Part shown: positions 8,975 to 34,097 of the stretch, in pieces
How the letters are laid out: each line of letters starts with the position of its first letter
Position numbering within the stretch: position 1 is the stretch's first letter
DNA from: Candidatus Uhrbacteria bacterium
GTDB taxonomy: Bacteria; Patescibacteriota; Patescibacteriia; UBA9934; GWF2-40-263
Assembly (NCBI GenBank): GCA_016188475.1
Contig: JACPHT010000004.1
Span: forward strand, 1 to 63,264
DNA: 63,264 nucleotides
Direction: 5' to 3'
Made by a program: the position numbers and the translations under genes
The notes under the pieces: model-generated
Databases searched by the model: none
What the model saw: the letters and a program-made list of their open reading frames with translations, nothing else
Told to the model about the DNA's origin: nothing

Positions 8975-10327
8975 TTAGCTCTGGTGCGTCAACCACTCTT
9001 TTGCTTTCTCGCGTGTAAGAATTTTGCCGTCCAATTGTTCATCTCGTAATAAATCGAGAAGTTCGCGAATTTTTGGACCAGCTTGTATCCCAGCATTTAA
9101 TACATCATTACCAGACAGAAGGGAAGGAATCGGTTCTTCATCTTCAACCGACCACAGCTTCAATATCTTTGATTTACGATTTTCAATTGCATTAGCTTCC
9201 GCGTGTTCGTTCAGTGTGCGTAAAAGTTGAACAAAAAATTTTCCACGAGTGTTCATGAACATTGCTTCGAATTTTGAAGCGCGCATTGTTGCTATTGAAT
9301 GTGTATCGTACTTTTTTTGAAGTTGAGCAACAAGCCAAAAAATATCATTCGGTTCAATACGCAGGTCGCTTTCGCGTGGAAGGGAATCAAGACCTGTGAG
9401 CGCGAGTTTTTTTGCAATGTCTTTTTGTTCAAGATTTCGCAAAAGTAAAGTTACAACAAGTGTTATCTGATTCTCTGTTAAAGATTGGATTGGTTTTAGA
9501 AGTGTCGCGTCTGTTTCAAAAAACATGTCCAGGACTCCGGTTGATTTTAGATGTTTGAGTGCGTTAGACGGATTTTTTGTAAAAGTTTTTGCAAGTTCAG
9601 ATCCGATAGTTTCGCGCGGGACAATGTATTCAAATTTACTGCCTTCGACAGGCTCAGGCGATAATTTTTCTTTTGTATAATTAATATGTGTGATTTGTTT
9701 TTGAATCGCTCGCGCAGTTTTTTCTTCAATTTCAAAATTTAATTCTGAAGCGAATCTAACCCCACGCAACATGCGTGACAAATCTTCTTTGAAGCGATCT
9801 GATGGTTTTCCAACTGCGCGGATGAGACGCTGTTCAATGTCTTTTATTCCTTTGAATGGGTCATGTAATTCTCCTGTTCGCATGTCAACTGCCATTGCGT
9901 TGATTGTAAAATCGCGTCGCGAAAGATCTTTTTTGATTGGAAGTTTTGCATCTGATTGCACGTCAAATTCTTTGTAACCGCCGCAACTTTCTAAAGAAGA
10001 TTTTTCAGTGCGTGGGAGAGCGATATCTACAAAAGGATTATCAGCGTGGCTATGACCTACAGGCATAAATTTGTACACACCGAACGTTTTTCCGACAAAA
10101 TCAAGTTTCCCTCGCGACTCAAACCATTCTTCGATTTTTTCTTTTTCAAGAAGTCGAATTACAAAATCGAAATCCATTTTTTTAGTGCGACGTTTTAATA
10201 AAATATCTCTTACCGCGCCTCCGACCAAAAATAATTCCGCATTAGGAAAGTCATTCAAGAATTCTTCAACAAAAAAAAGCGCACTGTGCGATTTGCAAAT
10301 TTGAATCATTTCCTCCTTTAGATTCAT
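8975..10327 (-). CDS. cca: CCA-adding enzyme / poly(A) polymerase-family tRNA nucleotidyltransferase
   Basis: It carries the GGAVRD motif (LVGGAVRDILL), RRDFTINAMA and the ED..RMLRGVRFA helix, all characteristic of class-II nucleotidyltransferases. Confidence 0.85.
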   Translation of the reverse strand: MNLKEEMIQICKSHSALFFVEEFLNDFPNAELFLVGGAVRDILLKRRTKKMDFDFVIRLLEKEKIEEWFESRGKLDFVGKTFGVYKFMPVGHSHADNPFVDIALPRTEKSSLESCGGYKEFDVQSDAKLPIKKDLSRRDFTINAMAVDMRTGELHDPFKGIKDIEQRLIRAVGKPSDRFKEDLSRMLRGVRFASELNFEIEEKTARAIQKQITHINYTKEKLSPEPVEGSKFEYIVPRETIGSELAKTFTKNPSNALKHLKSTGVLDMFFETDATLLKPIQSLTENQITLVVTLLLRNLEQKDIAKKLALTGLDSLPRESDLRIEPNDIFWLVAQLQKKYDTHSIATMRASKFEAMFMNTRGKFFVQLLRTLNEHAEANAIENRKSKILKLWSVEDEEPIPSLLSGNDVLNAGIQAGPKIRELLDLLRDEQLDGKILTREKAKEWLTHQS

Positions 10328-10348
10328 ACGAGCAGATTATACATGAAA

Positions 10349-10380
10349 ATTTATTCCTTCGACAGGCTCGGGAGATAAAT
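10349..10380. repeat. stem-loop repeat with a conserved core (CCTTCGACAGGCTCGGG), complement orientation
   Basis: The sequence is atttat-tccttcgacaggctcgggag-ataaat. It belongs to a roughly 60-bp unit that is repeated at 10513-10575. Confidence 0.85.
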
Positions 10381-10469
10381 ATTATTAAGCTCAGAAAATA
10401 GATTTTGTTCTGTGTATAACTAGTTTTGTATACACTGGTGTATGCAAAGAAGTATAAAACAGCGTGTCG

Positions 10470-10512: not shown

Positions 10513-10548
10513 AAATTTATTCTTTCGACAGGCTCAGGAGATAAATTT
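10513..10548. repeat. stem-loop repeat, core CTTTCGACAGGCTCAGG
   Basis: The sequence is aaatttat-tctttcgacaggctcaggag-ataaattt. Confidence 0.85.
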
Positions 10549-10680
10549 TATTAAGCTCAGGAACTAGATTTTTTGAATTTCGTGATTTATTTTTTTAACT
10601 TCTCCAACTTTTTTATCTTCTTCAGCTTCTTGATTTCAGTACTTATGCACAGTTATTTACTTTCTGCTATTTCATTATCT

Positions 10681-10762: not shown

Positions 10763-12208
10763 ATGAAAAAGATAGCCGTCATTTTACTTAGTTTCGCGTT
10801 TGCATTCGCGAACATCGGCATCTTCACAGCACAGGCCGCCACAGCGGCTACGCTTTCACTGTCCCCAACAAACACGACAGTCAAAACAGGGGACAGTTTT
10901 TCATTAAGCGTGCTTGTGAATCCGAACGGGGAGTCGCTCGACACAGCTCGTGTCAATTTGAGTTGGGACGCAACCAAACTCGAGGCACAAGCTTTTGAAC
11001 TTGGGAGTTTATTTCCAAATCTTTCCCCATCTAATTCAATTAGTAACACAGCTGGAACTTTGAGTTACGGTGCTTATAAATTTGGAACAGCGGTTACAGC
11101 ATCGGGAACTCTTGGAACAGTAACTTTCAGAGCATTGGCTTCTGGAAGCGCGACGGTTTCTGTTTCAAGCGATTCAAAACTTATCAGTGATGGCGCAGAA
11201 AAAATAAATACAAGTGCGCTTGGAAAAACAACAGTTACAATTTCCGGAGTTGCAGTTAAGACCGAGGCTCCGTCAACTGTTGGCGATACAACAACTACAA
11301 CAACCACCAGCACATCAGCAAGCGCTGAAGCGGCCGCTTTGAAATACTTTGGAGCGATCGCCGGGCACCTTCCATCAACAGCGGCGGATTGGGCGGCAAA
11401 TAAATGTATTGCGTATGGTGGATGCCAGGCAAGTCCACGCGATCTTGATAAGGAACAAAAAGCATTGACACTTTACACAAAGAAATACAACGCGCTTCCG
11501 GCAACAAGCATGGAGTGGAATGTGATTCACGCGATTGCGTATACGAACGTGTTTATCAATTGGGAATCGACGAAGACGGTTACAACTCCAGCAGTTACAG
11601 TCACAACACCTGCAACAACACCGACCGCAACAACAACTGCGCCAAAAGCAGAAGCGGCTAATCCTGAAAAAGATGCTTTGAAATATTTTGGCGCGTTTTA
11701 TGGTCGTATGCCTGCTTCAAGTGAGGATTGGGCGGCACTCAAGTGTATGGCTTACGGTGGATGTCAAGGTAGTCCTCGTGATGTTGAAAAAGAGAAAGCA
11801 GCGCTCAAAGTGTTCGGCGCAAAGTATGGAAAACTTCCATCCACTTCTCTTGAGTGGAATGTTTTGAATACGATCGCTTACAAATTAACTGTGAGCACAA
11901 CGACAACAACCACTACAACTACGACAGCTCCAGCAACTTCGACAACCACAACCACCACAACAACGAAGGAACTAACTATTGAACAGCAAGCGATTGGTTG
12001 GTTTGGAAAAATATACGGCCGTCTTCCATCTCTGACCGCAGATTGGAATGCTGTTAAGTATATGGTGAGCGGTTACAAACCAGCCAAACAAGATTTAGAT
12101 GCGGAATCAGCCGCAATAAAACTTTTTGCCAGTAAGTTTGGTCACTTACCTTCATCTGATCAAGACTGGAACATTATTGCCGCAATAGCTTATTCAGGAG
12201 CCAAATAA
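10763..12208 (+). CDS. secreted cohesin-domain protein with Thr-rich linkers and six 'FG-x3-G-x-LPS-x3-DW-x7-AY' half-repeats
   Basis: The signal peptide is MKKIAVILLSFAFAFANIGIFTAQA. A cohesin-like beta-sandwich segment follows (ATLSLSPTNTTVKTGDSFSLSVLVNP...VNLSWDATKLE...GTLGTVTFRALASGSATVSV). After that come three roughly 70-aa repeats (ALKYFGA..G.LPS...DWAA.KC.AYGGCQ.SPRD...) separated by poly-Thr linkers. Confidence 0.8.
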   Translation: MKKIAVILLSFAFAFANIGIFTAQAATAATLSLSPTNTTVKTGDSFSLSVLVNPNGESLDTARVNLSWDATKLEAQAFELGSLFPNLSPSNSISNTAGTLSYGAYKFGTAVTASGTLGTVTFRALASGSATVSVSSDSKLISDGAEKINTSALGKTTVTISGVAVKTEAPSTVGDTTTTTTTSTSASAEAAALKYFGAIAGHLPSTAADWAANKCIAYGGCQASPRDLDKEQKALTLYTKKYNALPATSMEWNVIHAIAYTNVFINWESTKTVTTPAVTVTTPATTPTATTTAPKAEAANPEKDALKYFGAFYGRMPASSEDWAALKCMAYGGCQGSPRDVEKEKAALKVFGAKYGKLPSTSLEWNVLNTIAYKLTVSTTTTTTTTTTAPATSTTTTTTTTKELTIEQQAIGWFGKIYGRLPSLTADWNAVKYMVSGYKPAKQDLDAESAAIKLFASKFGHLPSSDQDWNIIAAIAYSGAK

Positions 12209-12221
12209 GCGAACTCCACCT

Positions 12222-13097
12222 ATGAGAATACTTAAATTATCAATTCCTCTCATTGCTCTGATGTTGGCGGCTTTTCCACTTGGAGTGGGAGCTGTTTCGT
12301 CAACCAGTTATCAGATCATTCCAGAACAAGGGTTTCTTTCAACTCACGGAGTTGAGGCAACCTCAGCAAGCTATCAGCTTCAAGGCGCAATAAGCGCTGT
12401 TGCTGGAAATCCAACCAGCAGTAGTTATGAACAAGAAACCGGCGAAGGTTTTGAGTTTTATTGCGGAGACGGGTTCGTTGATCCTGCAGGAGCTGGAGGA
12501 ACACCAGCGGCAGAGTCCTGCGATGGAAACGCACTAAATGGCGCAACGTGTTCAACTCAAGGATTTGCAAGCGGAACTCTAACATGCAGTAGCACTTGTG
12601 CTTATGTCACATCAGCTTGTAACACTGGTGGAGGCGGTGGCGGAGGTGGAGGCGGAGGCGGAAGTTCTGCGGCAGTACCAGATGCGCCAGGGGTTGGCGA
12701 CACAATAAAAACTCTCGGGTTTAGTTATAAAAATTCTTTCCTCTTATTTGGAACAAACAGTTCAACAACAACAAGTTTGAAAGTGAATGATTCTTCAACA
12801 GGTGTCACATTCCCGACAACGACTTCTTGGCAAAAAACTGTAACTCTCGCGTACGGCCTAAACACATTCAAAATTATCGCCAGTAACTCAACTGGAAATT
12901 CTACAGAAACAGTTTACGAACTTTACCGACGACTGGTTGGCGATATTACTCAAGATAGCAAAGTCAACGACTACGATCTAAGCAAACTTGTAAAGCTATG
13001 GGGAGGAAAAGATCGAGGAGGAGACTTTAATGAAGATAGTGTAGTGAACGATTACGACTTTTCAATGATGGTAGCTCGATGGGGAACAAGCGTCTAA
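12222..13097 (+). CDS. secreted dockerin-containing protein (Cys-rich CGDG repeat, poly-Gly linker, C-terminal type-I dockerin)
   Basis: It has a signal peptide. The segment FYCGDGFVDP...ESCDGNALNGATCSTQGF...CSSTC resembles the Myxococcus cysteine-rich repeat. A G12 run follows. The C-terminus has two EF-hand-like dockerin loops, DITQDSKVNDYD-LSKLV and DFNEDSVVNDYD-FSMMV, with D/N/T at loop positions 1, 3, 5, 9 and 12. Confidence 0.8.
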   Translation: MRILKLSIPLIALMLAAFPLGVGAVSSTSYQIIPEQGFLSTHGVEATSASYQLQGAISAVAGNPTSSSYEQETGEGFEFYCGDGFVDPAGAGGTPAAESCDGNALNGATCSTQGFASGTLTCSSTCAYVTSACNTGGGGGGGGGGGGSSAAVPDAPGVGDTIKTLGFSYKNSFLLFGTNSSTTTSLKVNDSSTGVTFPTTTSWQKTVTLAYGLNTFKIIASNSTGNSTETVYELYRRLVGDITQDSKVNDYDLSKLVKLWGGKDRGGDFNEDSVVNDYDFSMMVARWGTSV

Positions 13098-13126
13098 GAA
13101 TCAAATGAACAAAAAGGAGGAAGCAA

Positions 13127-14371
13127 ATGAAAAGTATGAAACAATTTATTGTCGGACTAATCATCCTAGCTTCCTCCATAGCTCCTTTTTCAGCGCTTGC
13201 GGCAGGTTCAGCAGAAATGGGATTTTCACAAACAAACGTGTCAGTTGAAAAAGGCGACAAGTTTGATCTCACGGTTACGTTTGACGCGAAGTCTGAAAAA
13301 ATTGACACAGTGCGAAGTGTTGTCACATTTGATCCGACAATTCTAAAAGCGGAATCAGTGGCTCTTATCGGTCAATTCAATCGAAACGCGCCTGGAAATT
13401 ACATTGACAACAAAACAGGAAAAGTTTTTTGGGGCGGATTTACTCTGGAAGCTCTTAAAGAAACATCAGGTTCATTGCTCAAAATAACTTTTTCTGCGAA
13501 ACAGCCAGGCGAGGCAACAGTGGCGATTGATCCTGAATCAAAAATGATAAGCAACGGCGAAGAGAGAATCAACACGAAAAAACTCGGATCAGTAAAAGTA
13601 GTTGTGGCAGAGGCAAAATCAGCAGACCCAAATCTTTCAGTGATAACTGTTAACAGCTCAACACATCTTGATGAATCAGAATGGTATCCGAATAATTCTG
13701 TAAAAGTTGAATGGGTTGAGCTCAAAGGCGACAGCGAAATAACGGGGTACTATTACAGCTTTGATGAAACATCAAACAGTGATCCAACAAAATTTGTTCC
13801 ATCAACGCAAACGACGGCTGATTTCAATAAAGTGAAAGATGGAATCCACTATTTTCACATCAAAGGTGTTCAGAAGGATGGGAAAACAACAAAGACTGTT
13901 CATCGTCAATTCAAGGTTGATGTAACAAAACCAAATCCAGTTTCACTAACAGTATCATCAGAACAACTTATTGAAGGAGAATCTCTGTGGCTCACGTTTG
14001 CAACAACAGATGAAATGTCAGGTGTGCTCCAGTATCAAGTAGCTTTGAACACTAGCGCGTTTCTTCCTCAGGAAAGTCCGATGGAACTTACTGATCTGAA
14101 ACCAGGCACATACTTTGTCCGAGTCGCGGCGCTTGATCGAGCAGGAAACGTAACTTATCAAGGGCAAAGCGTGCGTGTGTACCCAGAAGGAACCGAAATT
14201 CAACGACCTGAAGGATACGAACAAAGTTCAGAAATTAACGCGATTACCAAATCTCCAAGCAATGAAAGTGAACAAAAAAATAAAAACCGTAACCTGTTGA
14301 TAACTATCGTGTTGGGAGCGCTCATCGGTTTTGGTATAATTTACGCAATGAAATTTAAAAAAATTAAATAA
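13127..14371 (+). CDS. membrane-anchored cohesin-domain protein (signal peptide, cohesin, Ig-like domains, C-terminal TM helix)
   Basis: The RBS is AGGAGG. The cohesin-like segment is MGFSQTNVSVEKGDKFDLTVTFDAKSEKIDTVRSVVTFDPTILKAES...GSLLKITFSAKQPGEATVAI. The C-terminal anchor is NLLITIVLGALIGFGIIYAMKFKKIK. Confidence 0.8.
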   Translation: MKSMKQFIVGLIILASSIAPFSALAAGSAEMGFSQTNVSVEKGDKFDLTVTFDAKSEKIDTVRSVVTFDPTILKAESVALIGQFNRNAPGNYIDNKTGKVFWGGFTLEALKETSGSLLKITFSAKQPGEATVAIDPESKMISNGEERINTKKLGSVKVVVAEAKSADPNLSVITVNSSTHLDESEWYPNNSVKVEWVELKGDSEITGYYYSFDETSNSDPTKFVPSTQTTADFNKVKDGIHYFHIKGVQKDGKTTKTVHRQFKVDVTKPNPVSLTVSSEQLIEGESLWLTFATTDEMSGVLQYQVALNTSAFLPQESPMELTDLKPGTYFVRVAALDRAGNVTYQGQSVRVYPEGTEIQRPEGYEQSSEINAITKSPSNESEQKNKNRNLLITIVLGALIGFGIIYAMKFKKIK

Positions 14372-14416: not shown

Positions 14417-17400
14417 ATGAAAACCGCCAAAATATTTCTGCACTCGTTGGTCGGGATTTCGATGGTGTTTTACACCCTCGCCATCGCCCTTCTGGCAGTG
14501 CCGTCCGTTGCCAGTGCGCAGGTTCCAACCTCCATTGGTTACAGTGGACGACTCTTTAACGCATCAGGTACGGCATTATCCGGAACCTATTATTTCTGGT
14601 TTGACCTCGAAGACGCCTTAACTCTCGGATCGACAACAGCGTCAAACATCCAAGGTGTTACTGCGGCAGGAGCCGCGGCAATCACCGTGACCAACGGATT
14701 TTTCACATTGGAAATTCCTGTTGGAACAGATTTGGGAGACTTTACAGACGACCTTTATCTTGAAATGAAAGTTCATACCGCAGACGCGGTTGCAAGCGCG
14801 GAAACGCTTTCGCCTCGCGTTCGTATTTTGAAAAATCCTTATTCAGTATTCACACAAGCGGTTCAAAATTCCGCGGCTGACCCATCAGTCGCATTTAGCG
14901 GTGAGATGTATTACGACACAGATACAAACGACTTGAAGTGGTACAACGGAACTTCTTGGTTGCGATTGGCATCGAATTTGGACACGGCTTATAACAATTT
15001 TGGCGCTACTGCTTCCAAAATTACTGTTGACGCGGCAGAAAGCCAAACAGGCGGGCTTGAATTTGAATTGTCAGCAACAAACAATCCAAACTTAATTTTT
15101 GATACACAGGGAACAGGAGATGTAATTTTTCAAGATGCTGGCACAGCATGGTTTACGATTTCTGACGGACAGGCAATTACTTCAACCGGATCAGGAGCAA
15201 TTTCATTGGCTCCAGGTGCCGCTTCAAACATTACAACTTCAGCAGGTGATTTAACACTTCAAGCTTCGGCGGCTTCTGTGAACATTGTTGGAGTTGAAGC
15301 TGACGCTGCCGCAATTTTACTTGACGCGAATAACAACGCGGCAGGTGGAATTGATATCGACGCAGGAACGGGTGGAGTTGCGTTGGATACAACAGGAGCT
15401 TTTTCAATTGACGGCGCAACAGCCTCTAACGTAACAGTTACAGGTTCAGGAATAAGCTTGACCCTCGCGGCCGCTGGCGGTGGCGCGCAGTCGCTTGTCT
15501 TGAATTCTGCTGGAACTGGAACAAACGCGATTGATATCAATGCGACAGCCGGCGGAGTGGATGTAGACGCGGTAGGTGTTGTAACAATTGACGCGGCTGG
15601 AATTTCGAATTTTTCAACTTCAGTAGGAACACTCACACTTGGAACTTCAGCAGGTGGGACGTCATCAAGTTTGATTTTGAGCTCTGCTGACACTTCCAGC
15701 GATGCAATTTTACTTGATGTTGACGGATCTGCCGGTTCTGGGATTTATCTTGATGCATATGATTCAGCCACAAACACAACCGGTGTCATAACCCTTGATG
15801 GTGCTTCAGTTTCTATAAACAGTTCCGGATCGTCCGGAATTGCTCTTTCAGCCGGTGATTCCGGTCCGATTGCGATTGCGACAACAGGCGCCGCTCTTTC
15901 CATTACCGGTGGTGGAACAAACGGAACAGTGAGTATCAGCAGCACACTTCAAGATGTTACATTGGAAACAGTGGCATCCAGTCGAACTATTGGAATTGGA
16001 GCCAGTAATACTCCAACAACAAGAACAATTAACATGGCAACTGGTTCCGGAACAGATACAGTAACTTTTGGTGATGCGACAGGATCGGACCAGTTTAATC
16101 TTATTTCTGGTGAGAGTACTAACGATATTTTTGATGTTACTTTTGCATCTCTCACAACAGCTGATGCGTTTGATATTGATACAGCCGCTTTAACAACGGG
16201 CGATGTGTTTGATATTACATATACAGGCACAACAGGTTCCGCGATTCGTATCACGGATTCAACTGCCGCCAGTGCATCTAGCATGATTTTGATGGCAAAC
16301 ACGGCAGCAGATGTAACGGCACAGACATACTTAATTCAGGGAACATACACAGATACAGCTGACGCAGAAGCAGACTTCCTATTGTTTGCAGATAATGCAG
16401 GAGATGCTCAGTTTGCGATTAACACTGATGGAAATACTGTAATTACTGGAACCTTACTTGGTACAGATGCACTTACATTAACAGCAGGTGACATTCTCGT
16501 CTCAAGCGGTAATTTTGATCTAACTTCTGGAGACTTCAATGTCGGAGTTATAGATGCGCAATCTGTAAACATTGACGGTGATGGTTCACCAACCGCTGAC
16601 ATTCTTTCTATCGGAGTTGGCGACACATCTGCGACAGATGGCGTTGATGCACTTTTGATTACAAGCAATATATCTGGAGCTTCTGGAACAGCGCTACACT
16701 TTGATCCAGACTACACAACAGGAGTGGCTGATAATTACAGCGTGATTTCCGTTGACGCATTTACTGCCGCTACAACCGCAAACGTTGCAAGTGCAGTAAA
16801 AGGACTTGATATAGGTAATTTGACACAGACAGAAAACACGCTTAACGATATTACCGCAACCGCCGTTGACATCGGAACAGGATGGGATGTTGGTCTTGCG
16901 ATCGGATCAGGAGGTGTGCAACTTGACGATAATATAAGCATTTTGTTCGGCACAGGCTTAGATACAGCTTTCCGTTGGGATACTACTGACGCGAACGCAA
17001 ATGAGATGATTGTCGCAATGCCAGAAGGCGATGGTACAAATGTGCCTGTCTATGTAGTTGGAGACGCTTCGATAATCGGCGCGGATCTCGGATTTTTTAA
17101 TGGAGTTACAGACCCGACAATCGCTATTGTTTCAGATGATGGTGGAGATTATGCGCGATTCTCCGTGAGCGATGCCGGAATTCTAACTATTGATACTGTC
17201 ACAGCAGGTTCAGACATAGTGTTCACACCGGTTGATGAAGCTGTATACACATTGGCGGCAGGCGGTGCGGTTGTCATCGATGCGGCTTCAACCGATTCAA
17301 CTGAAACAACAGGAGTCATTAATCTTGATGTAGATTCTTCTGCTGCAAACGTTGGTATTGATGTTGACTCTGAAGTCATCGATGATGATGCTATCGATAC

Positions 17401-18094
17401 CCAAGCAGGTGCGAAGATCACAATGACAAACAGTGCAAACGATTCCGATGTTGTATACGGTTTGCAAGTTGCTGAACTTGGTGGTGCGGCTTCGGGTGGA
17501 AACGAATACGCTATCTACCAAGCAGGAACAGCATGGGATCTTGGACTCAAAGTTGAAGACGCAGTTGATATTGATGGATCCGCAAACATTGCAGACACAA
17601 CAGCTGGATCTGACGTTGCCATGGGGAACGCAACAGGAAACCTAACCTTCTTGTCTGACAATGCTGATTTCGGACTAACAGACGCAACAGACAACGTGTT
17701 CCAGCTTGTTAACGCAACTAATTCCCGCACATATCTTGACGTTGATGCTGGAGCCGCGGACACAGTCACTCTTGGTAACTCAACTGACGTTACAGCAATT
17801 GCTGGTTCTGCCACTTCAACCATTACACTTGGCACAGCCTTCACAGTTGCCGCAACAACAGGCGCGACTATCATTGCAGGTTCTGCCGAAGGCACAGCCG
17901 CTCTAACACTTACAGCAGGTGATGTTGTTCTTACAGACGGAGATATCACATTGACAAGCGGTCAGATTGAGATCCCGGACAACACAGCTTCTTTCACAGT
18001 TTTGGAAGATGCAACAGGTGGAGCAGACTATTTGGCCATTGCAACAACAGATGGTTCTGAGACAATGGTTTTGTACAACAGATGGAACTGGTGA
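14417..18094 (+). CDS. giant Thr/Ala/Gly/Asp-rich surface fibre protein, N-terminal part (reading frame ends at a probable frameshift)
   Basis: 1225-aa ORF. The signal peptide is ...LLAVPSVASA. The body is long and low-complexity, of the beta-helix type. It ends 27 nt after a 219-bp repeat. The downstream ORF continues the same composition in the +1 frame. Confidence 0.75.
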   Translation: MKTAKIFLHSLVGISMVFYTLAIALLAVPSVASAQVPTSIGYSGRLFNASGTALSGTYYFWFDLEDALTLGSTTASNIQGVTAAGAAAITVTNGFFTLEIPVGTDLGDFTDDLYLEMKVHTADAVASAETLSPRVRILKNPYSVFTQAVQNSAADPSVAFSGEMYYDTDTNDLKWYNGTSWLRLASNLDTAYNNFGATASKITVDAAESQTGGLEFELSATNNPNLIFDTQGTGDVIFQDAGTAWFTISDGQAITSTGSGAISLAPGAASNITTSAGDLTLQASAASVNIVGVEADAAAILLDANNNAAGGIDIDAGTGGVALDTTGAFSIDGATASNVTVTGSGISLTLAAAGGGAQSLVLNSAGTGTNAIDINATAGGVDVDAVGVVTIDAAGISNFSTSVGTLTLGTSAGGTSSSLILSSADTSSDAILLDVDGSAGSGIYLDAYDSATNTTGVITLDGASVSINSSGSSGIALSAGDSGPIAIATTGAALSITGGGTNGTVSISSTLQDVTLETVASSRTIGIGASNTPTTRTINMATGSGTDTVTFGDATGSDQFNLISGESTNDIFDVTFASLTTADAFDIDTAALTTGDVFDITYTGTTGSAIRITDSTAASASSMILMANTAADVTAQTYLIQGTYTDTADAEADFLLFADNAGDAQFAINTDGNTVITGTLLGTDALTLTAGDILVSSGNFDLTSGDFNVGVIDAQSVNIDGDGSPTADILSIGVGDTSATDGVDALLITSNISGASGTALHFDPDYTTGVADNYSVISVDAFTAATTANVASAVKGLDIGNLTQTENTLNDITATAVDIGTGWDVGLAIGSGGVQLDDNISILFGTGLDTAFRWDTTDANANEMIVAMPEGDGTNVPVYVVGDASIIGADLGFFNGVTDPTIAIVSDDGGDYARFSVSDAGILTIDTVTAGSDIVFTPVDEAVYTLAAGGAVVIDAASTDSTETTGVINLDVDSSAANVGIDVDSEVIDDDAIDTQAGAKITMTNSANDSDVVYGLQVAELGGAASGGNEYAIYQAGTAWDLGLKVEDAVDIDGSANIADTTAGSDVAMGNATGNLTFLSDNADFGLTDATDNVFQLVNATNSRTYLDVDAGAADTVTLGNSTDVTAIAGSATSTITLGTAFTVAATTGATIIAGSAEGTAALTLTAGDVVLTDGDITLTSGQIEIPDNTASFTVLEDATGGADYLAIATTDGSETMVLYNRWNW
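17849..18067 (+). repeat. 219-bp direct repeat, copy 1 (inside the fibre gene)
   Basis: The stretch from gccgcaacaacaggcgcgactatcattgcagg to gatggttctgagacaatg is identical to 18624-18842 except for 1 nt (ctt versus cta). Confidence 0.9.
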
Positions 18095-20228
18095 CGCTGA
18101 AGTCGAGCTTCCAGACGGATCTATCAATACAGATGAAGTGCTCAACGACTCTCTCACCTTCGCAGATATTTCAAATTCCTCTGCCATTGATGCAGATACA
18201 ACATTCACAGGGGCAGATGGTATTCAACTCACTCTTACTCCTTCTGCCACTTCAGGCGACTACAACTTTTTCACGATTGATGCCAACCAAGTTGACGATG
18301 GAGTCGCCACAGACGACTTTGACGCCATGCATCTTGATCTCACCTCTGAATCCGACGATGCAGGCGACACGTTTGATGGTCTTGTCATTAACTGGGAAAA
18401 CGGCACTGCAAACACAATCATTGATAGCGCGATTAAGATTGATAATGCTGAAACAACCGCTGGCACAATGACAGATGCAATCATCATTACTTCTTCTGGA
18501 GTTGACGCTGGAGTCACAGACGCAATTGACGTCTCGGCCGCTAATATTACAAATGCTATTAACGTTGGTGGAAACGTAATCCTTGGTGGAGCCGCAGTTA
18601 TTAACTTCGATGGATTCGATGTGGCCGCAACAACAGGCGCGACTATCATTGCAGGTTCTGCCGAAGGCACAGCCGCTCTAACACTTACAGCAGGTGATGT
18701 TGTTCTAACAGACGGAGATATCACATTGACAAGCGGTCAGATTGAGATCCCGGACAACACAGCTTCTTTCACAGTTTTGGAAGATGCAACAGGTGGAGCA
18801 GACTATTTGGCCATTGCAACAACAGATGGTTCTGAGACAATGACGGATGACAATGCTATTACTGATTTCACTTTCACTGGTGGTGTTACTGCAAGTAACG
18901 ATCTTGCTGTGGCTGATGATTTCTCAGTTGAAGGAATCGTGGATTTTGGAACATCAGATACGATGGCTGATAATGATCTAACGCCTTCAGTGAGCGGAGC
19001 AGCGATCTTTGTTAGTCAAGCAACTGAAGATACAATCACTAAATTTGATGATGCAGTTGAGGGACAGATTTGGATCATAAATCATCAGGGAATAGCTGGG
19101 GAGACATTTGATTGTGATAATACGGACGGAGGGAATGATGATTTACAGTGTGGAAGTGCTGATATTACAGCTTCTGCAAACGATACAACTGTGTGGTATT
19201 ATAGCTCTGGTGGTGCATCACAGCTTATAAGTTGGGTGAAAAACGGCAGTGCACAAACTGGTACTGACCTTGCGGAGTGGTTCCCGGCAACTGAAGAACT
19301 TGAGGCTGGCGATGTGCTTGTTGCAAGCAGTTCAGATCCAGTCAACGTTAGTAAGAGTTCATCTGGCTATCAGAAAGGTCTTATCGGCATTGTCGCTACA
19401 CAGCCAGGTTTAATTCTCGGTGAACAAGGAACATCAACTTACGCGGCACAAGTCGCTCTTGCTGGACGTGTTCCTGTAAAAGTATCTGACGAAAATGGAG
19501 CTATTGAAATCGGTGATTATTTGACTTCATCAGCGACACTTTCTGGATACGCCATGAAAGCAACTGAAACAGGTCCAGTTATCGGTATGGCAATGGAGGC
19601 GTTAGAAAGCGGATCAGGCTTAATCACTGTTAAGGTTGACAACATGTGGTACTCACCTTCAAGTGATACACTTCAGGGTGGAAATGCCGCCGCAGTGTCA
19701 AGCGCGGAAACAGTAACATCCGGCGATTACTCCTTCGAAGGCTCTGTCATAGTTGCCGAACACCTCTATGGCTCTCGCGATATGGCAGGCCGAGTTCGAT
19801 TGGCTTCAGGAAAAGACAGTGTCAAAGTGACATTTGAAAAACCTTACTCAGAAGGTTCAACTCCGATCATAACCTTTAGTTCTCGAAGCAATTCTGATTC
19901 TGCGCAAGGAGCATGGGTTAGCGATGAAAGTACAACCGGATTTACAATCAACAGATCCAATTCCGAAGCGCAAGTTGAGTTTAACTGGATCGCGATTGGT
20001 GTGAATGACGCTCAAGTGACAGTTTCTGATGATTATTCAGACGGAACAAGCGTTTCTGTGAATGATCAAAATGGTCCTTCAGCGCCAGCGCCAGTTGAGC
20101 CAGTAGCAGAGGAAATGGCTCCGGCGGTTGACGAACTAGTTGTCGAGGAACCAGCAGTAGCTGAAGAAGCTCCTGCAGAGGAACCAGCACCTGAAGTTCC
20201 AGTGGTTGAAGAGCTTCCAGTTGAATAA
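18069..20228 (+). CDS. giant surface fibre protein, C-terminal part (frame +1 relative to 14417-18094; no convincing start codon of its own)
   Basis: The ORF-track entry is 17967-20228, but its first roughly 34 codons merely overlap repeat copy 1 out of frame. From about 18075 the sequence reads TTDGTGDAEVELPDGSINTDEV..., which matches the upstream protein's composition. It contains repeat copy 2 in frame and a C-terminal globular part (GTDLAEWFPATEELEAGDVLVAS...IGIVATQPGLILG...). The tail is acidic and rich in Pro, Glu, Ala and Val. Confidence 0.7.
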   Translation, partial: FCTTDGTGDAEVELPDGSINTDEVLNDSLTFADISNSSAIDADTTFTGADGIQLTLTPSATSGDYNFFTIDANQVDDGVATDDFDAMHLDLTSESDDAGDTFDGLVINWENGTANTIIDSAIKIDNAETTAGTMTDAIIITSSGVDAGVTDAIDVSAANITNAINVGGNVILGGAAVINFDGFDVAATTGATIIAGSAEGTAALTLTAGDVVLTDGDITLTSGQIEIPDNTASFTVLEDATGGADYLAIATTDGSETMTDDNAITDFTFTGGVTASNDLAVADDFSVEGIVDFGTSDTMADNDLTPSVSGAAIFVSQATEDTITKFDDAVEGQIWIINHQGIAGETFDCDNTDGGNDDLQCGSADITASANDTTVWYYSSGGASQLISWVKNGSAQTGTDLAEWFPATEELEAGDVLVASSSDPVNVSKSSSGYQKGLIGIVATQPGLILGEQGTSTYAAQVALAGRVPVKVSDENGAIEIGDYLTSSATLSGYAMKATETGPVIGMAMEALESGSGLITVKVDNMWYSPSSDTLQGGNAAAVSSAETVTSGDYSFEGSVIVAEHLYGSRDMAGRVRLASGKDSVKVTFEKPYSEGSTPIITFSSRSNSDSAQGAWVSDESTTGFTINRSNSEAQVEFNWIAIGVNDAQVTVSDDYSDGTSVSVNDQNGPSAPAPVEPVAEEMAPAVDELVVEEPAVAEEAPAEEPAPEVPVVEELPVE
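18624..18842 (+). repeat. 219-bp direct repeat, copy 2
   Basis: See 17849-18067. Both copies encode AATTGATIIAGSAEGTAALTLTAGDVVLTDGDITLTSGQIEIPDNTASFTVLEDATGGADYLAIATTDGSETM. Confidence 0.9.
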
Positions 20229-20466: not shown

Positions 20467-20504
20467 AAATTTTACCCCTTCGACAGGCTCAGGGAATAAA
20501 ATTT
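20467..20504. repeat. stem-loop repeat, core CCCCTTCGACAGGCTCAGGG
   Basis: The sequence is aaatttta-ccccttcgacaggctcaggga-a-taaaattt. A composite copy in the opposite orientation (cctgagctgg...gtgagcttgtcgaacggtcgaagg) lies at 20410-20449. Confidence 0.85.
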
Positions 20505-20514
20505 GAGTTGCTAT

Positions 20515-20988
20515 ATGTCCATTGAATCTAAACTCAATCGCGGTCCTGTTATTCGTCCAATGGGTCAGTCAGAAGAAAAGAAAAAAAGTAATCCATGGGT
20601 GTGGATAATTGTCATTCTAACTATTATTGTTGCTGGGGCGCTTTGGTGGTATCGTTCAGCTACTTCGCCAGGAGATCCCTCGGCTTCGCTCGGGATGACA
20701 TCAATAGAATATCAAGCAGTCTTCCTTGATAATGGGCAGGTTTATTTTGGTAAGCTGAAAAAGTCAGGAGAAGATTTTTACGAACTAACAGATGTTTTTT
20801 ATCTTCAAACCGGAGCCGTTGGGATAGATCAAGCATCTAATCTTTCGCTTGCAAAACTTGGAAACGAGGCGCACGGGCCAGAAGATAAAATGCAAATCAA
20901 CAAAGATCACGTTTTGTTTATTGAAGACATGAAGAGTGAAAGCAAAGTCGTTAAAGCAATTCAAGATTATTATTCAAAAAAGGAATAA
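20515..20988 (+). CDS. membrane-anchored hypothetical protein
   Basis: The ORF track begins at a TTG at 20503 inside the repeat. The ATG at 20515 gives MSIESKLNRG...NPWVWIIVILTIIVAGALWWY (one TM helix). It contains an in-frame repeat-derived segment, GDPSASLGMT (20674-20699). Confidence 0.6.
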   Translation: MSIESKLNRGPVIRPMGQSEEKKKSNPWVWIIVILTIIVAGALWWYRSATSPGDPSASLGMTSIEYQAVFLDNGQVYFGKLKKSGEDFYELTDVFYLQTGAVGIDQASNLSLAKLGNEAHGPEDKMQINKDHVLFIEDMKSESKVVKAIQDYYSKKE

Positions 20989-21000
20989 CATTTATCCAAC

Positions 21001-21039
21001 AAAATTTTATCCTTCGACAAGCTCAGGAAATAAAATTTT
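21001..21039. repeat. stem-loop repeat, core CCTTCGACAAGCTCAGG
   Basis: The sequence is aaaattttat-ccttcgacaagctcaggaa-ataaaatttt, with a perfect 10-bp outer stem. Confidence 0.85.
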
Positions 21040-21070
21040 AATCTGTTTCGTAATTCAAAGTAATCATACT

Positions 21071-23500
21071 ATGACTAACATTTTTCAGAAAATCACTTCG
21101 TGGTCAGTGTACCTGCTCTTTTTCATTCTTCCTCTTTTTTTCCTTCCATGGTCAACAAGCATTCTTGAACATAATAAACAACTGCTTCTTGTTGTTTTGT
21201 CCATTCTCGCTCTTGTCGCGTGGCTTGGGCAAATGGTGATGACTAAGCATCTAACTTTTCGTTCAGGATGGTTGAATATAATTCCCGGCGCTTTCTTGCT
21301 TGCTGTTCTTATTTCAGCCTCGACTTCGTTTGCCGGTTATCAAAGTTGGGTTGGTCAGGCTTCACAGGAATACACAAGTTTTCTTTCAATCGCGATGTAT
21401 GTTGTTTTATTCTATGTCTTGATGAATAACGCAAGCGGAACACAGACACAACGGAACATTCTTTTTGCGGTTTTATTATCTTCAGCGATTGTAGGTCTTA
21501 TCGCGCTTGTTGGAATGTTCAATCTTGTCCACTTGCCTTTTGATTTTGCCCAGTCTCTTGGTTTTAACACGGTTGGAACAATCAATGGTCTTATATCATT
21601 TCTTACAGTTGTCATGTTTACAGGTCTTGCAATGTGGCTTGTATCGCATCAAGGACGCGATCGCGTAATTCCACTTGGTAATTTGGGAATAGTAATGCGA
21701 GTATTGATCGTTATTGTAACTTTGGTAAATCTTGTTGCTTTGATCGCGATTGATTTTGGTGTTTTTTGGATCACCAACATTATCGGTGTTTTGCTTCTTG
21801 CCGCGTTTGGGTTTATTCAGTCACAAGAATTTCCAAGTCCAAAACGATTTGCTCTTCCGCTTGCTGTGTTGCTTGTGAGTATTTTGCTTCTTTTTCTTCC
21901 AACACCGCTTAAACTCAAACTGCCGATTGTTGTTTCGCCAAGTTATGGAACAAGTTGGGGAATTACGACTGCGGCTCTTGGTTCCAATTCAGGAAATATG
22001 TTGTTTGGAACAGGGCCCGGAACATACATGCATGATTTTCTTGCATTCAAACCGGTTGCTGTGAACTCATCGCAATTTTGGTCGTTAAATTTTGATCGAG
22101 CAAAGTCAGATTTATTTACGACTTTTGCAACACTAGGAATTGTTGGATCAGCTCTTTGGCTTGCACTTATGATTTGGGTTGCTGCGAAAGCGCTTGGTCG
22201 TTTGATTTTTGAGCGCGACCACGAAGAATGGAAAATGACGTATGTGATTTTTGTAGGATGGGCAATTTTGTTTGTCTCTCACTTGCTATATTCCTCGAAT
22301 ATCACAATGGAGTTTATGCTTTGGGGATTTACAGGGCTTCTTGCGTCACAAGTTATGCTCAAACTTTGGAATACCGATTTTGGTAAATCACCAAAGCTAG
22401 GCCTCGCAACTTCATTCGCATTCGTGCTTGTTGCTGTTGGTGTTCTTGCCTCTTTGTTTGTGACAGGTCAACGATACGCGGCTGAAGTTGCGTTTGCTAA
22501 AGCTGTGAAGGCCGACAAGGCAGGAGCGAACATTGACGAAGTAGCTGGCCAGCTTCAGCGCGCTGTAAAGTTGAACGGTTTGAGCGATATTTATTATCGA
22601 AATCTTGCCGCCGCTCAACTTTCACAAGCAAACCAAAAAATTTCAGCGGCCGGCGGAAAAGAACTTACAACAGAACAAACTCAAGAAGTCTCAAAACTTG
22701 TTTCTTCCGCGATCGAGTCAGCAAGTCGCGCAACAGCTCTTGAACCAAATTATGTTGCGAACTGGACAGTGCGCGGATCGATCTATCGCGATGTTATGAG
22801 TTTTGCGCAGGGCGCGGAAGATTTAGCGGCACAGATGTACATGAACGCGATACGGCTTGAACCGAACAATCCTGTTCATCGAGCAAATTTAGGGCGTGTT
22901 TATTTAACTGTTGCAAATCGCGCGAAGTCGCTTAAGTCAGCTGAAGACAAAGAACTTGCAAAAACAGCAACTGAACAAGAAACAAAACTTCTTGCCTCGG
23001 CTGAACAGGCTTTCACATCAGCTATTAAATTAAAGAATGATTATCTTCCAGCGCATTATTATCTTGCCGCAACTTACGAGCGACAAGGTCGTTTGGAAGA
23101 AGCTGCAACTCGACTTGCCGCGCTTCGAAACAATAATCAAGCTGACATCGGAGTCGCTTTTCAACTTTCACAAATGTTGATAAGACTTCAGCGATATGAT
23201 CTTGCGACAAAAGAATTGGAGCGTATTGTAGGACTCAAATCGGATTACTCAAACGCTCTGTGGTATTTGGCGTCAATGTACGAAGTCGGCAAGAAACAAA
23301 CAGACGCGATTAAGTTGATTGAAAAGGTTGTTGAACTCAATCCTGATAACGAACTTGCAAAGACTCGTTTAGCTAGAATGAAAAATGGCGAGATGACAAC
23401 TGTTTTACCAGAGCCGATTCAAGAAGGGCAGGGAAATCCAACCGAGGTTCCGGTTGGAGAAGTGGTTGAAGAACCAGCGCCAGCAGAAACAGCGGAGTAA
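21071..23500 (+). CDS. polytopic membrane protein, O-antigen-ligase (Wzy_C)-like, with a C-terminal TPR-repeat domain
   Basis: The ORF-track start at 20936 runs through the repeat. The ATG at 21071 gives MTNIFQKITSWSVYLLFFILPLFF. It has at least 10 hydrophobic helices and the segment LFGTGPGTYMHDF. The C-terminal roughly 330 aa show TPR-like periodicity (ALEPNYVANWTVRGSIY..., AIRLEPNNPVHRANLGRVY..., AIKLKNDYLPAHYYLAATY...). Confidence 0.65.
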   Translation: MTNIFQKITSWSVYLLFFILPLFFLPWSTSILEHNKQLLLVVLSILALVAWLGQMVMTKHLTFRSGWLNIIPGAFLLAVLISASTSFAGYQSWVGQASQEYTSFLSIAMYVVLFYVLMNNASGTQTQRNILFAVLLSSAIVGLIALVGMFNLVHLPFDFAQSLGFNTVGTINGLISFLTVVMFTGLAMWLVSHQGRDRVIPLGNLGIVMRVLIVIVTLVNLVALIAIDFGVFWITNIIGVLLLAAFGFIQSQEFPSPKRFALPLAVLLVSILLLFLPTPLKLKLPIVVSPSYGTSWGITTAALGSNSGNMLFGTGPGTYMHDFLAFKPVAVNSSQFWSLNFDRAKSDLFTTFATLGIVGSALWLALMIWVAAKALGRLIFERDHEEWKMTYVIFVGWAILFVSHLLYSSNITMEFMLWGFTGLLASQVMLKLWNTDFGKSPKLGLATSFAFVLVAVGVLASLFVTGQRYAAEVAFAKAVKADKAGANIDEVAGQLQRAVKLNGLSDIYYRNLAAAQLSQANQKISAAGGKELTTEQTQEVSKLVSSAIESASRATALEPNYVANWTVRGSIYRDVMSFAQGAEDLAAQMYMNAIRLEPNNPVHRANLGRVYLTVANRAKSLKSAEDKELAKTATEQETKLLASAEQAFTSAIKLKNDYLPAHYYLAATYERQGRLEEAATRLAALRNNNQADIGVAFQLSQMLIRLQRYDLATKELERIVGLKSDYSNALWYLASMYEVGKKQTDAIKLIEKVVELNPDNELAKTRLARMKNGEMTTVLPEPIQEGQGNPTEVPVGEVVEEPAPAETAE

Positions 23501-23530: not shown

Positions 23531-23541
23531 TTTTGCATTGT

Positions 23542-24108
23542 ATGGCGCAAACACATCGTTATCATCAATCTCTTCATCAACTTAATGGAATTCATTTTAT
23601 TTCTGCAACGACTTATCATAGAACAATGTATTTTTCTGATAGCCAGATATGTTTGATCTTGCAACAGCAGATGATGTTTTATAGTAAATTATATCAAATA
23701 GATTTATTGAGTTTTGTCATCATGCCAGATCATTTACATTGTCTGATTTGGCCGCAAGGTGAAAAAACATTTAGTGACTTTATGAGAGGTGTGAAATCGT
23801 ATTCAGGAAAGAAAATTTTGGAGGAATTGGATAGGCGGGGTCCCCAGACCCAGCCCATCAAGACGAATTACGAGTATAATAATAGATTGGGTGTCAGTAC
23901 AAACATCAATAGGCGTGGTCCCATGACCCCGCCAGTACGAAAGATATGGCAAGATACATTCTTTACATATTTTATAGATTCTGTTTTTAAACTTGAAGAA
24001 AAATTAGAATACATAAAACAGAATCCAATTAAAGCAGGTTTGGTTTCGACATCGGAAGCTTATAGATGGTTGTATGTAAATCCGAAAATAAATGAGATTG
24101 AATTTTAA
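23542..24108 (+). CDS. REP-associated tyrosine transposase (RAYT, IS200/Y1-like HUH enzyme)
   Basis: It has the HUH motif VIMPDHLHCLIWP and the catalytic Tyr helix LEYIKQNPIKAGLV...YRW. The ATG at 23542 is preferred over the TTG at 23533. Two REP copies lie inside the CDS, between the HUH and Tyr motifs. Confidence 0.8.
   Translation: MAQTHRYHQSLHQLNGIHFISATTYHRTMYFSDSQICLILQQQMMFYSKLYQIDLLSFVIMPDHLHCLIWPQGEKTFSDFMRGVKSYSGKKILEELDRRGPQTQPIKTNYEYNNRLGVSTNINRRGPMTPPVRKIWQDTFFTYFIDSVFKLEEKLEYIKQNPIKAGLVSTSEAYRWLYVNPKINEIEF
23834..23855. repeat. REP copy inside the RAYT CDS (degenerate right arm)
   Basis: The sequence ataGGCGGGGTCCCCAGACCCAGCC encodes ..DRRGPQTQP.. Confidence 0.8.
23912..23933. 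repeat. REP copy inside the RAYT CDS
   Basis: The sequence ataGGCGTGGTCCCATGACCCCGCC encodes ..NRRGPMTPP.. Confidence 0.8.
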
Positions 24109-34011: not shown

Positions 34012-34097
34012 TGGTGCGCGGGAGAGGACTCGAACCTCCATGCTCTTGCGAGCGTTACCACCTCAAGGTAGTGCGTCTACCATTTCGCCACCCGCGC
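34012..34097 (-). tRNA. tRNA-Leu (anticodon GAG), class II with a long variable arm
   Basis: The reverse complement reads GCGCGGG TG GCG AAATGGTAGA CGC A CTACC TTGAGGT GGTAA CGCTCGCAAGAGCAT GGAGG TTCGAGT CCTCT CCCGCGC A CCA. Confidence 0.85.

Follow-up and report, generated by a model that had tools for sequence, protein, structure and literature searches.

We analysed a stretch of 63,264 nucleotides (nt) from Candidatus Uhrbacteria bacterium (GenBank assembly GCA_016188475.1, contig JACPHT010000004.1, positions 1 to 63,264 of the forward strand), referred to below in its entirety as the window. Between positions 10,763 and 14,371 lie three open reading frames (ORFs), all on the + strand, which we call P1, P2 and P3 and which encode a cohesin protein, a dockerin protein and a second cohesin protein. 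In P1 (10763–12208, 481 amino acids (aa)), a signal peptide and a cohesin domain are followed by a 77-aa module that is present three times in the C-terminal part, with threonine-rich spacers. P2 (12222–13097, 291 aa) contains a signal peptide, a motif-bearing region, a six-cysteine module, a linker of 12 glycines (G12), an immunoglobulin (Ig)-like module and a dockerin. P3 (13127–14371, 414 aa) comprises a signal peptide, a cohesin, two Ig/fn3-like domains and a C-terminal transmembrane helix. The signal peptides at the N-termini of all three proteins, as read from the sequence, are of the Sec type. The trio is followed by the gene for a giant secreted fibre-like protein (14417–20228, + strand), and the intergenic gaps measure 13, 29 and 45 nt. 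P3 has a strong Shine–Dalgarno sequence, AAAGGAGG. An earlier interpretation made from the letters alone, hereafter the sequence-only reading, had reported three tightly spaced genes at these positions, and the ORF coordinates bear this out.

The domains of P1, P2 and P3 were identified by Pfam scans of isolated segments, profile searches and structure prediction. When scanned alone, aa 27–167 of P1 match the Pfam family Cohesin (PF00963) with 40.9 bits (E=3e-10) and aa 24–165 of P3 with 32.9 bits (E=8.8e-8), the gathering score being 24.1. The last 64 aa of P2 match Dockerin_1 (PF00404) with 26.1 bits (E=9.8e-6; gathering score 22.9). The cohesin domains occupy aa 28–168 of P1 (10844–11266, + strand) and, from Pfam and Foldseek, aa 29–161 of P3 (13211–13609, + strand). 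They are paralogues with 36% identity (E=8e-27) and share the residues DT-R, F...P-N...N..G and SK-IS-G-E-IN, most of which are also conserved across the P3 family. Pfam Cohesin is matched by all 15 members of our cohesin alignment (A2), and PF00963 is carried by 13 of 13 database homologues of the cohesin domain. Against the PDB, the cohesin-family profile found cellulosomal cohesins as its best matches (4ums, 1g1k, 5g5d and 2vn5), with type II cohesins scoring below type I. A 22-sequence dockerin profile retrieved dockerin-bearing chains exclusively down to E ~0.1, headed by NagH of Clostridium perfringens (2jnk/2ozn, E=9.4e-5) and followed by 4fl4, 1daq and 2mte. PDB searches with single sequences returned nothing, or artefacts of the poly-Gly linker only, and an NCBIfam scan of full-length P1–P3 gave nothing relevant. 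The isolated-domain scans and PDB profile searches agree with the AlphaFold2 (AF2) models and Foldseek comparisons given below, and together they confirm the order cohesin, dockerin, cohesin that the sequence-only reading had assigned.

The dockerin of P2 (12933–13094, + strand; aa 238–291) is built from two segments, each a Ca-binding loop with a helix: DITQDSKVNDYD (aa 241–252) followed by LSKLV, and DFNEDSVVNDYD (aa 268–279) followed by FSMMV. Both canonical loops, with the helix motifs quoted for them in the sequence-only reading, are present, and the AF2 model, computed from 59 sequences, places helices at aa 250–259 and 277–285. Across aa 146–291 the predicted local distance difference test (pLDDT) score exceeds 94, and an Ig-like β-sandwich (12669–12932, + strand; aa 150–237; pLDDT >94), which adjoins the dockerin directly, packs on its two helices. 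In Foldseek the modelled dockerin superposes on 2y3n_B with a TM-score of 0.82 and a root-mean-square deviation (rmsd) of 1.3 Å. The Ig-like module matches Ig and fn3 domains; the X-module–dockerin (XDoc) chain 5m0y_B is also listed, with an rmsd of 13 Å. Among 59 P2 orthologues, no change occurs at D241, D250, D252, D268, D277 or D279 and hardly any at N270 and D272; positions 3 and 5 of loop 1 vary. The core V-N-D-Y-D-(L/F)-S is common to both segments. Symmetric segments of this kind, as in other dockerins, fit a dual binding mode, with which the symmetry of P2 would be compatible. Mean column conservation is highest in the dockerin (0.76), compared with 0.56 in the Ig-like module and 0.54 in aa 25–79, a pattern that points to purifying selection on the dockerin.

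The N-terminal part of P2 has a different character. Its aa 25–79, modelled with pLDDT <50, contain three S-x-S-Y-Q-type motifs, which a search of the giant and other proteins found in P2 orthologues alone, so the motif does not connect the sequences of P2 and the giant. The following six-cysteine module (12459–12623, + strand; aa 80–134; pLDDT ~80) holds cysteines 81, 100, 110, 122, 126 and 133, five of which are invariant and one, C81, nearly invariant in the 59 orthologues. What had been taken for a Cys-rich CGDG repeat is in fact a single module of ~55 aa, whose three tandem copies occur elsewhere, in an unrelated protein (P0090). The G12 linker (12627–12662, + strand; aa 136–147), by comparison, is exactly 12 glycines long, as had been read, and poly-Gly is conserved in the orthologues. 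The head of P2, conserved yet predicted to be disordered, is compatible with folding on a conserved partner, for which gene order makes the giant fibre a candidate.

P3 was modelled from a 61-sequence alignment with a pLDDT of 88.5 and a predicted TM-score (pTM) of 0.72. Residues 29–161 adopt an all-β cohesin fold devoid of helix, mostly at pLDDT >90. The best Foldseek match of P3 is 2w1n, the cohesin–FN3 fragment of C. perfringens GH84C (E=3.3e-12), and among cohesins it superposes on 6kgc_A with a TM-score of 0.72 and on 4dh2_A with 0.70 (rmsd 2.6 Å). Two Ig/fn3-like stalk domains follow (13640–14182, + strand; aa 172–264 and 272–352), recognised from the AF2 strands and from fn3 matches of 28.5 bits for the isolated C-terminal part and 26.8 bits for the full protein (gathering score 25); NCBIfam adds a match to an OmpL47-type barrel of 39.8 bits against a cut-off of 40. 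The C-terminal transmembrane helix (14288–14350, + strand) is succeeded by KFKKIK and conserved in orthologues. An AF2 helix spanning aa 379–413 and the tail sequence, which ends in KNKNRNLLITIVLGALIGFGIIYAMKFKKIK, establish the membrane anchor that the sequence-only reading had placed here, and the tail has no LPXTG sortase motif. The conserved residues common to the two cohesins, mapped on the P3 model, fall mainly in four strands with modest enrichment. In our own numbering these would be strands 3, 5, 6 and 8, in solved complexes the usual dockerin-binding face, and the position of the conserved residues on it is only suggestive.

P1 was correctly read as a secreted protein with an N-terminal cohesin, and what had been missed is its C-terminal half. 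Multiple alignment defines three helical modules of 77 aa within aa 187–481 (11321–11554, 11660–11893 and 11972–12205, + strand), separated by threonine runs. Each is made up of two half-repeats with the pattern A-L-x-x-F-x-x-x-Y-G-x-L-P-x-x-x-x-D/E-W. In an exhaustive search, the module profile matched 1,099 representative proteins (E<=1e-3). The 155 proteins that we retrieved are 79–3,508 aa long and contain 1–5 copies each. In 139 of them the last copy stops no more than 5 aa short of the C-terminus; of the 155, 26 carry a cohesin and none a dockerin. In a sample of 35 proteins, the N-terminal partners of the module include subtilase, polysaccharide deacetylase, fn3, CARDB, β-helix and LRR domains. 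Organism names were attached to two of ten clusters looked up, and both belong to the candidate phyla radiation (CPR), namely Peregrinibacteria and Patescibacteria. A profile of the module corresponds to no Pfam family and no natural PDB entry, returning only the designed helical-repeat protein 8fje and noise, and neither full-length nor isolated Pfam scans of P1 detected an SLH domain. Because of its C-terminal position and the diversity of secreted-protein domains with which it is combined, we regard the module as a candidate surface- or wall-retention module.

To place the trio in an evolutionary context, we scanned species-representative genomes and obtained 43 loci, of which 39 hold a P2 orthologue as counted with custom hidden Markov models (HMMs); the denominators below are those of the 39 loci with enough flanking sequence. 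Nearly all 43 loci come from Candidatus Uhrbacteria, some bearing an automatic "uncultured Gammaproteobacteria" label, and the nearest homologues are likewise from this lineage, in keeping with the earlier suggestion of a CPR-like cell. P2 has 76 full-length orthologues at 37–81% identity and P3 ~95, some of which NCBI names "cohesin domain-containing protein". A cohesin gene lies directly 3′ of P2 in 36 of 37 loci, and another 5′ of it in 31 of 35 by script, or 32 when L041, which the filter missed, is included; the proteins encoded by these upstream genes have 1–4 copies of the 77-aa module. An ORF of at least 700 aa follows the second cohesin gene in all 28 loci where this could be scored. 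Synteny with the fibre gene, proposed in the sequence-only reading as something to survey, is found in these related genomes, and the trio with the giant gene is supported as an evolutionarily maintained unit. P2 and P3 occur in the absence of P1 in L027, L031 and the P0076 contig. The upstream neighbours in the window are housekeeping genes by Pfam (CCA/PolyA_pol, pseudouridine synthase and cytidylate kinase), and two other contigs have much of the same neighbourhood, plus ribosomal protein L19. Given these neighbours and the conserved gene order across loci, the cassette is a stable chromosomal feature of the lineage rather than a mobile or phage island.

The giant gene itself had been described as a fibre gene of roughly 1,950 aa. 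It does follow the trio, and its orthologues are intact, with complete examples of ~1,800–2,300 aa; in the window, however, it is split into two overlapping ORFs in different frames (14417–18094 and 17967–20228). Two direct repeats of 222 nt (17846–18067 and 18621–18842) are 99% identical and spaced by 775 nt, which is 1 modulo 3, and the frame changes within 18068–18094, directly after the first copy. Either the assembly was joined wrongly at the repeat or the frameshift is genuine. The protein has a signal peptide and no anchor. Compared with its L001 orthologue, the N-terminal 500 aa and the C-terminal ~340 aa are conserved and the middle is variable. The conserved C-terminal region (19266–20228) begins with DLAEWF at nt 19266, and its D-x-A-E, invariant in eight orthologues, aligns with the first residue (DFAEYF) of 3gqh, the autochaperone of phi29 gp12, a weak match at E=0.066. 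Among eight giant orthologues, Peptidase_G2 was matched in one (3.1e-4), H_lectin in four (best 4.1e-5) and Gp53-like_C in four, the H_lectin and Gp53-like_C matches being below gathering scores in individual scans. The C-terminus ends in an acidic Pro/Glu tail. These features offer a lead only, towards a possible self-processing, trimeric, tailspike-like fibre with a lectin-like end.

Dockerin and cohesin genes also lie side by side in other CPR lineages. Parcubacteria GW2011_GWB1_42_6 (L045, 1–11019) has two separate pairs in which a dockerin gene immediately precedes a gene for a cohesin protein with a C-terminal transmembrane segment; one dockerin belongs to a protein of 211 aa that has a poly-Gly linker, and the other is fused to the end of a repeat protein of 974 aa. 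A genome scan with a Roizmanbacteria subset of cohesins, those anchored by LPxSG, as query returned 34 loci from Roizmanbacteria/Microgenomates (L046–L079). In all 32 of these that include the upstream flank, 1–3 same-strand genes for C-terminal dockerins are followed by 1–2 cohesin genes. Dockerin_1 exceeded its gathering score in 8 of 10 of the cargo proteins scanned with Pfam. Two cargoes are thermolysin-type M4 peptidases (L061 and L066), and adaptor-like proteins with both a cohesin and a dockerin are found in L049, where the cohesin is above the gathering score, and L057, where it is below. The Roizmanbacteria cohesin homologues, unlike P3, terminate in LPxSG and a transmembrane segment. 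Plug and socket genes placed side by side are a recurring CPR arrangement, and this recurrence is the strongest available argument for regarding adjacent dockerin and cohesin partners as cognate.

Downstream of the giant gene lie genes for a 161-aa protein and then a TPR protein of ~850 aa (20503–23500, + strand), in an order kept in the P0076 contig and in L001. The 161-aa protein belongs to no family. The TPR protein (~820–850 aa across contigs) has C-terminal TPR repeats, matched in Pfam, and, by translation, a hydrophobic N-terminal half. A role of the two in export, glycosylation or assembly of surface proteins is possible. The 435-nt leader 5′ of P1 contains two 60-nt direct repeats (10347–10406 and 10513–10572, + strand). 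These include a motif of ~35 nt with the core TTCGACAGGCTCRGGAGATAAAT, which occurs five times in the window where none is expected: twice in this leader, once just 5′ of the 161-aa gene (20479–20501), once 5′ of the TPR gene (21013–21035) and once, on the opposite strand, within the gene for the CCA enzyme (9644–9666). It was found in none of 79 fetched loci and is perhaps a regulatory or repeat element specific to this genome.

Other features of the window lie further from the cassette. An IS200-like Y1 transposase gene (Y1_Tnp, E=3.9e-11) is found at 23533–24108, a short way 3′ of the surface locus. At 25618–28152 (− strand) an 844-aa protein with seven FG-GAP repeats and five MopE-type metal-binding motifs is encoded in a segment with a G+C content of 0.48, compared with ~0.42 in its neighbours. 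At 34012–34097 (− strand) ARAGORN predicts a tRNA whose anticodon loop is odd and to which it assigns no identity; with Rfam it scores 49 bits, far under the three other tRNAs of the window. A second giant ORF, of 3,153 aa, is located at 47776–57237, and our custom HMMs found no cohesin, dockerin or P1-type module in it.

Cohesins and dockerins outside cellulosomes are well known, also from organisms without a cellulolytic lifestyle, and Peer et al. reportedly surveyed such modules across the three domains of life in 2009. Among characterised systems, the non-cellulosomal pair of C. perfringens is the nearest in both structure and sequence. The cohesin–FN3 fragment of NagJ/GH84C (2w1n), the best structural match of P3, has the same succession of a cohesin and an fn3-like domain, and the dockerin of the NagH μ-toxin (2jnk/2ozn) is the best sequence-profile match of the P2 dockerin. 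In both systems the modules function outside cellulose degradation. In C. perfringens they are appended to large secreted glycoside hydrolase toxins, whereas here neither partner carries an enzyme, one cohesin is membrane-anchored, and the gene order is fixed, with a giant fibre gene as part of the cassette.

In its logic, the cassette is closest to the anchoring tier of the cellulosome, where an X-dockerin sits on a cell-bound cohesin. In Clostridium (Acetivibrio) thermocellum, the X-dockerin of CipA is taken up by the SLH-anchored SdbA, OlpB and Orf2p, and an Ig-like (X) module braces the dockerin, as the adjoining Ig-like module may do in P2, although the Ig-like and dockerin modules of P2 superpose poorly on the listed XDoc chain 5m0y_B. 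The combination of a cohesin with repeated C-terminal candidate retention modules in P1 likewise parallels the cohesin and SLH repeats of C. thermocellum. Type II cohesins have an additional α-helix and β-flaps; the model of the P3 cohesin has no helix, in which it differs from them, and the cohesin matches are nearer to type I. Pfam scans of the trio found no SLH domain, carbohydrate-binding module (CBM), glycoside hydrolase or multi-cohesin scaffoldin, and Pfam and NCBIfam detected neither glycoside hydrolase nor CBM in P1, P2, P3 or the giant, so the statement that no glycoside hydrolase accompanies the trio stands. P1 and P3 have one cohesin each, and P2 is the sole dockerin protein that custom HMMs and a Ca-loop pattern search found in the window. 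The cassette is not a cellulosome, and it is neither SLH-anchored nor sortase-anchored.

A parallel from a cultivated CPR episymbiont is the Saccharibacterium Southlakia epibionticum, in which the dockerin-domain protein SEML1_0315 is essential (PMC10633639). That study notes a single dockerin-domain protein and does not mention a cohesin partner, whereas both are encoded here. Full-text searches of open-access papers turned up no description of this cassette, of CPR dockerin–cohesin gene pairs or of the 77-aa module. A weak resemblance also links the C-terminal region of the giant to the phi29 gp12 pre-neck appendage, a tailspike (MEROPS G2; 3gqh) with an auto-cleaving C-terminal chaperone; chaperones of this family begin with a catalytic D-x-x-E at the site of cleavage. 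Unlike gp12, the giant is chromosomal, reaches ~1,800–2,300 aa and has an additional H-lectin-like end besides its acidic tail, and its scores are below significance or gathering thresholds.

Based on these observations, we hypothesize that the cassette is a lineage-conserved, non-cellulolytic, Ca-dependent surface display system, with P2 docking on P3 in the membrane and possibly also on P1, a reading that we consider probable. All three proteins would be exported through their Sec-type signal peptides. P3 would be held in the membrane by its C-terminal helix, with the two Ig/fn3-like domains of the model keeping its cohesin off the membrane. P1 would offer the paralogous cohesin and, judging by the distribution of the 77-aa modules, is probably kept in the wall or surface layer by them. 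The Ig-braced dockerin of P2, with its two EF-hand-like Ca loops and helices, would plug into a cohesin. Since the adjacency of P2 and P3 is near-universal and the two persist where P1 is absent, P3 may be the obligatory partner and P1 a second, optional docking site. Docking would display the N-terminal part of P2, that is the S-x-S-Y-Q region and the disulfide-knotted six-Cys module, on the G12 tether. The head could then bind the co-conserved giant fibre as an adaptor, or could itself be the ligand-binding tip. The most likely function of the cassette is to keep a surface protein attached to the cell, and the role in host attachment raised by the sequence-only reading is plausible.

Several points weigh against this proposal. 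Gene adjacency is the sole support for binding between cohesin and dockerin, just as gene order is the sole link between the giant and the trio, and a custom HMM scan of the giant found neither cohesin nor dockerin. Loop 1 of the dockerin has a threonine instead of Asp/Asn at Ca-position 3. The N-terminal 70 aa of P2, part of the presumed cargo, are modelled at pLDDT <50, and the wall-retention role of the 77-aa modules is suggested solely by position and partner domains. The window covers 63 kb of the genome, and other dockerin proteins may compete for the cohesins of P1 and P3. Furthermore, full-length Pfam scans did not detect Cohesin in P1 and P3, and full-length P2 reached 20.1 bits with Dockerin_1, below the gathering score of 22.9. 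Taken literally, the full-length scans contradict the domain assignment, for which the sequence-only reading had named an HMM scan as a check, whereas the isolated cohesin and dockerin domains exceed their gathering scores. Because the isolated-domain scans pass, we interpret the full-length misses as a problem of sensitivity rather than as absence. Long low-complexity runs of threonine and glycine are present in the trio proteins.

Other explanations differ in how they treat the relationship between the three proteins. P1 and P3 could be general anchoring scaffoldins for several dockerin proteins from other parts of the genome, for example host-aimed proteases or wall-degrading enzymes, with P2 as one client of a multi-cargo display or degradative complex. 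The system would then be a "proteolysome" or an analogue of the cellulosome instead of a tether dedicated to the fibre. The Roizmanbacteria-type loci, with their 1–3 dockerin genes 5′ of cohesin genes, M4 peptidases and cohesin-plus-dockerin adaptors, provide a precedent, and the presence of two cohesins per one adjacent dockerin suggests spare capacity. We nevertheless consider such a complex unlikely, as custom HMMs and a Ca-loop pattern search gave no further dockerin in the 63-kb window, a cassette with one dockerin is fixed across ~39 Uhrbacteria species, and there is one cohesin per protein and no CBM. It is also conceivable that the folds are cohesin- and dockerin-like but the proteins do not bind one another and act as independent surface proteins, the cohesins being Ig-like spacers or glycan binders and the dockerin a Ca-dependent stabiliser or ligand-binding module. 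To our knowledge, no partner has been demonstrated for many of the cohesin and dockerin homologues outside cellulosomes, and the modest sequence scores of 26–41 bits and the deviation at position 3 of dockerin loop 1 would fit this explanation. The recurrence of dockerin–cohesin adjacency in three separate CPR lineages argues for binding instead, as do the dockerin being the most conserved segment of P2 and the large overlap of the residues common to both cohesin families with those conserved in the P3 family, and we judge the absence of binding to be quite improbable.

An origin of the trio as prophage- or phage-derived tail-fibre accessory genes is suggested by the C-terminal region of the giant, with its resemblance to the phi29 gp12 autochaperone (E=0.066) and to Peptidase_G2, Gp53-like_C or H_lectin, and by one weak PHROG match. 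The locus, on the other hand, lies among housekeeping genes in a neighbourhood much of which is common to two other contigs, and the cassette is present in ~39 species. Pfam revealed no capsid, terminase or phage integrase in the neighbours scanned, where the IS200-like transposase is the sole mobile-element gene. PHROGs gave no match for P1, P2 or P3. We rejected the prophage explanation, to which we attach hardly any probability.

We further speculate, with considerable doubt, that CPR bacteria, at least Uhrbacteria, other Parcubacteria and Roizmanbacteria/Microgenomates, might generally build their surface with adjacent plug and socket cassettes whose cargoes range from proteases to adaptors, with the 77-aa module as an alternative for direct wall retention, and that the Uhrbacteria cassette might moor a phage-tailspike-like, lectin-tipped, giant trimeric fibre for host attachment. 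The 77-aa module, which is widespread and has no prior name, may be a CPR surface-retention signal.

If binding is not confirmed, P1, P2 and P3 would be one more set of cohesin and dockerin homologues outside cellulosomes, and such homologues are known to be common. Surface construction and host attachment in the ultra-small CPR bacteria are poorly understood, and hardly any of these bacteria have been cultivated. A lineage-wide cassette of well-understood parts gives testable predictions about the binding partners, the Ca2+ dependence of their binding and what the cell displays. As a practical use, Uhrbacteria cells in environmental samples could be labelled or captured with recombinant cohesin or dockerin as an affinity probe, and the finding would matter more if both the binding and the tethering of the fibre were confirmed.

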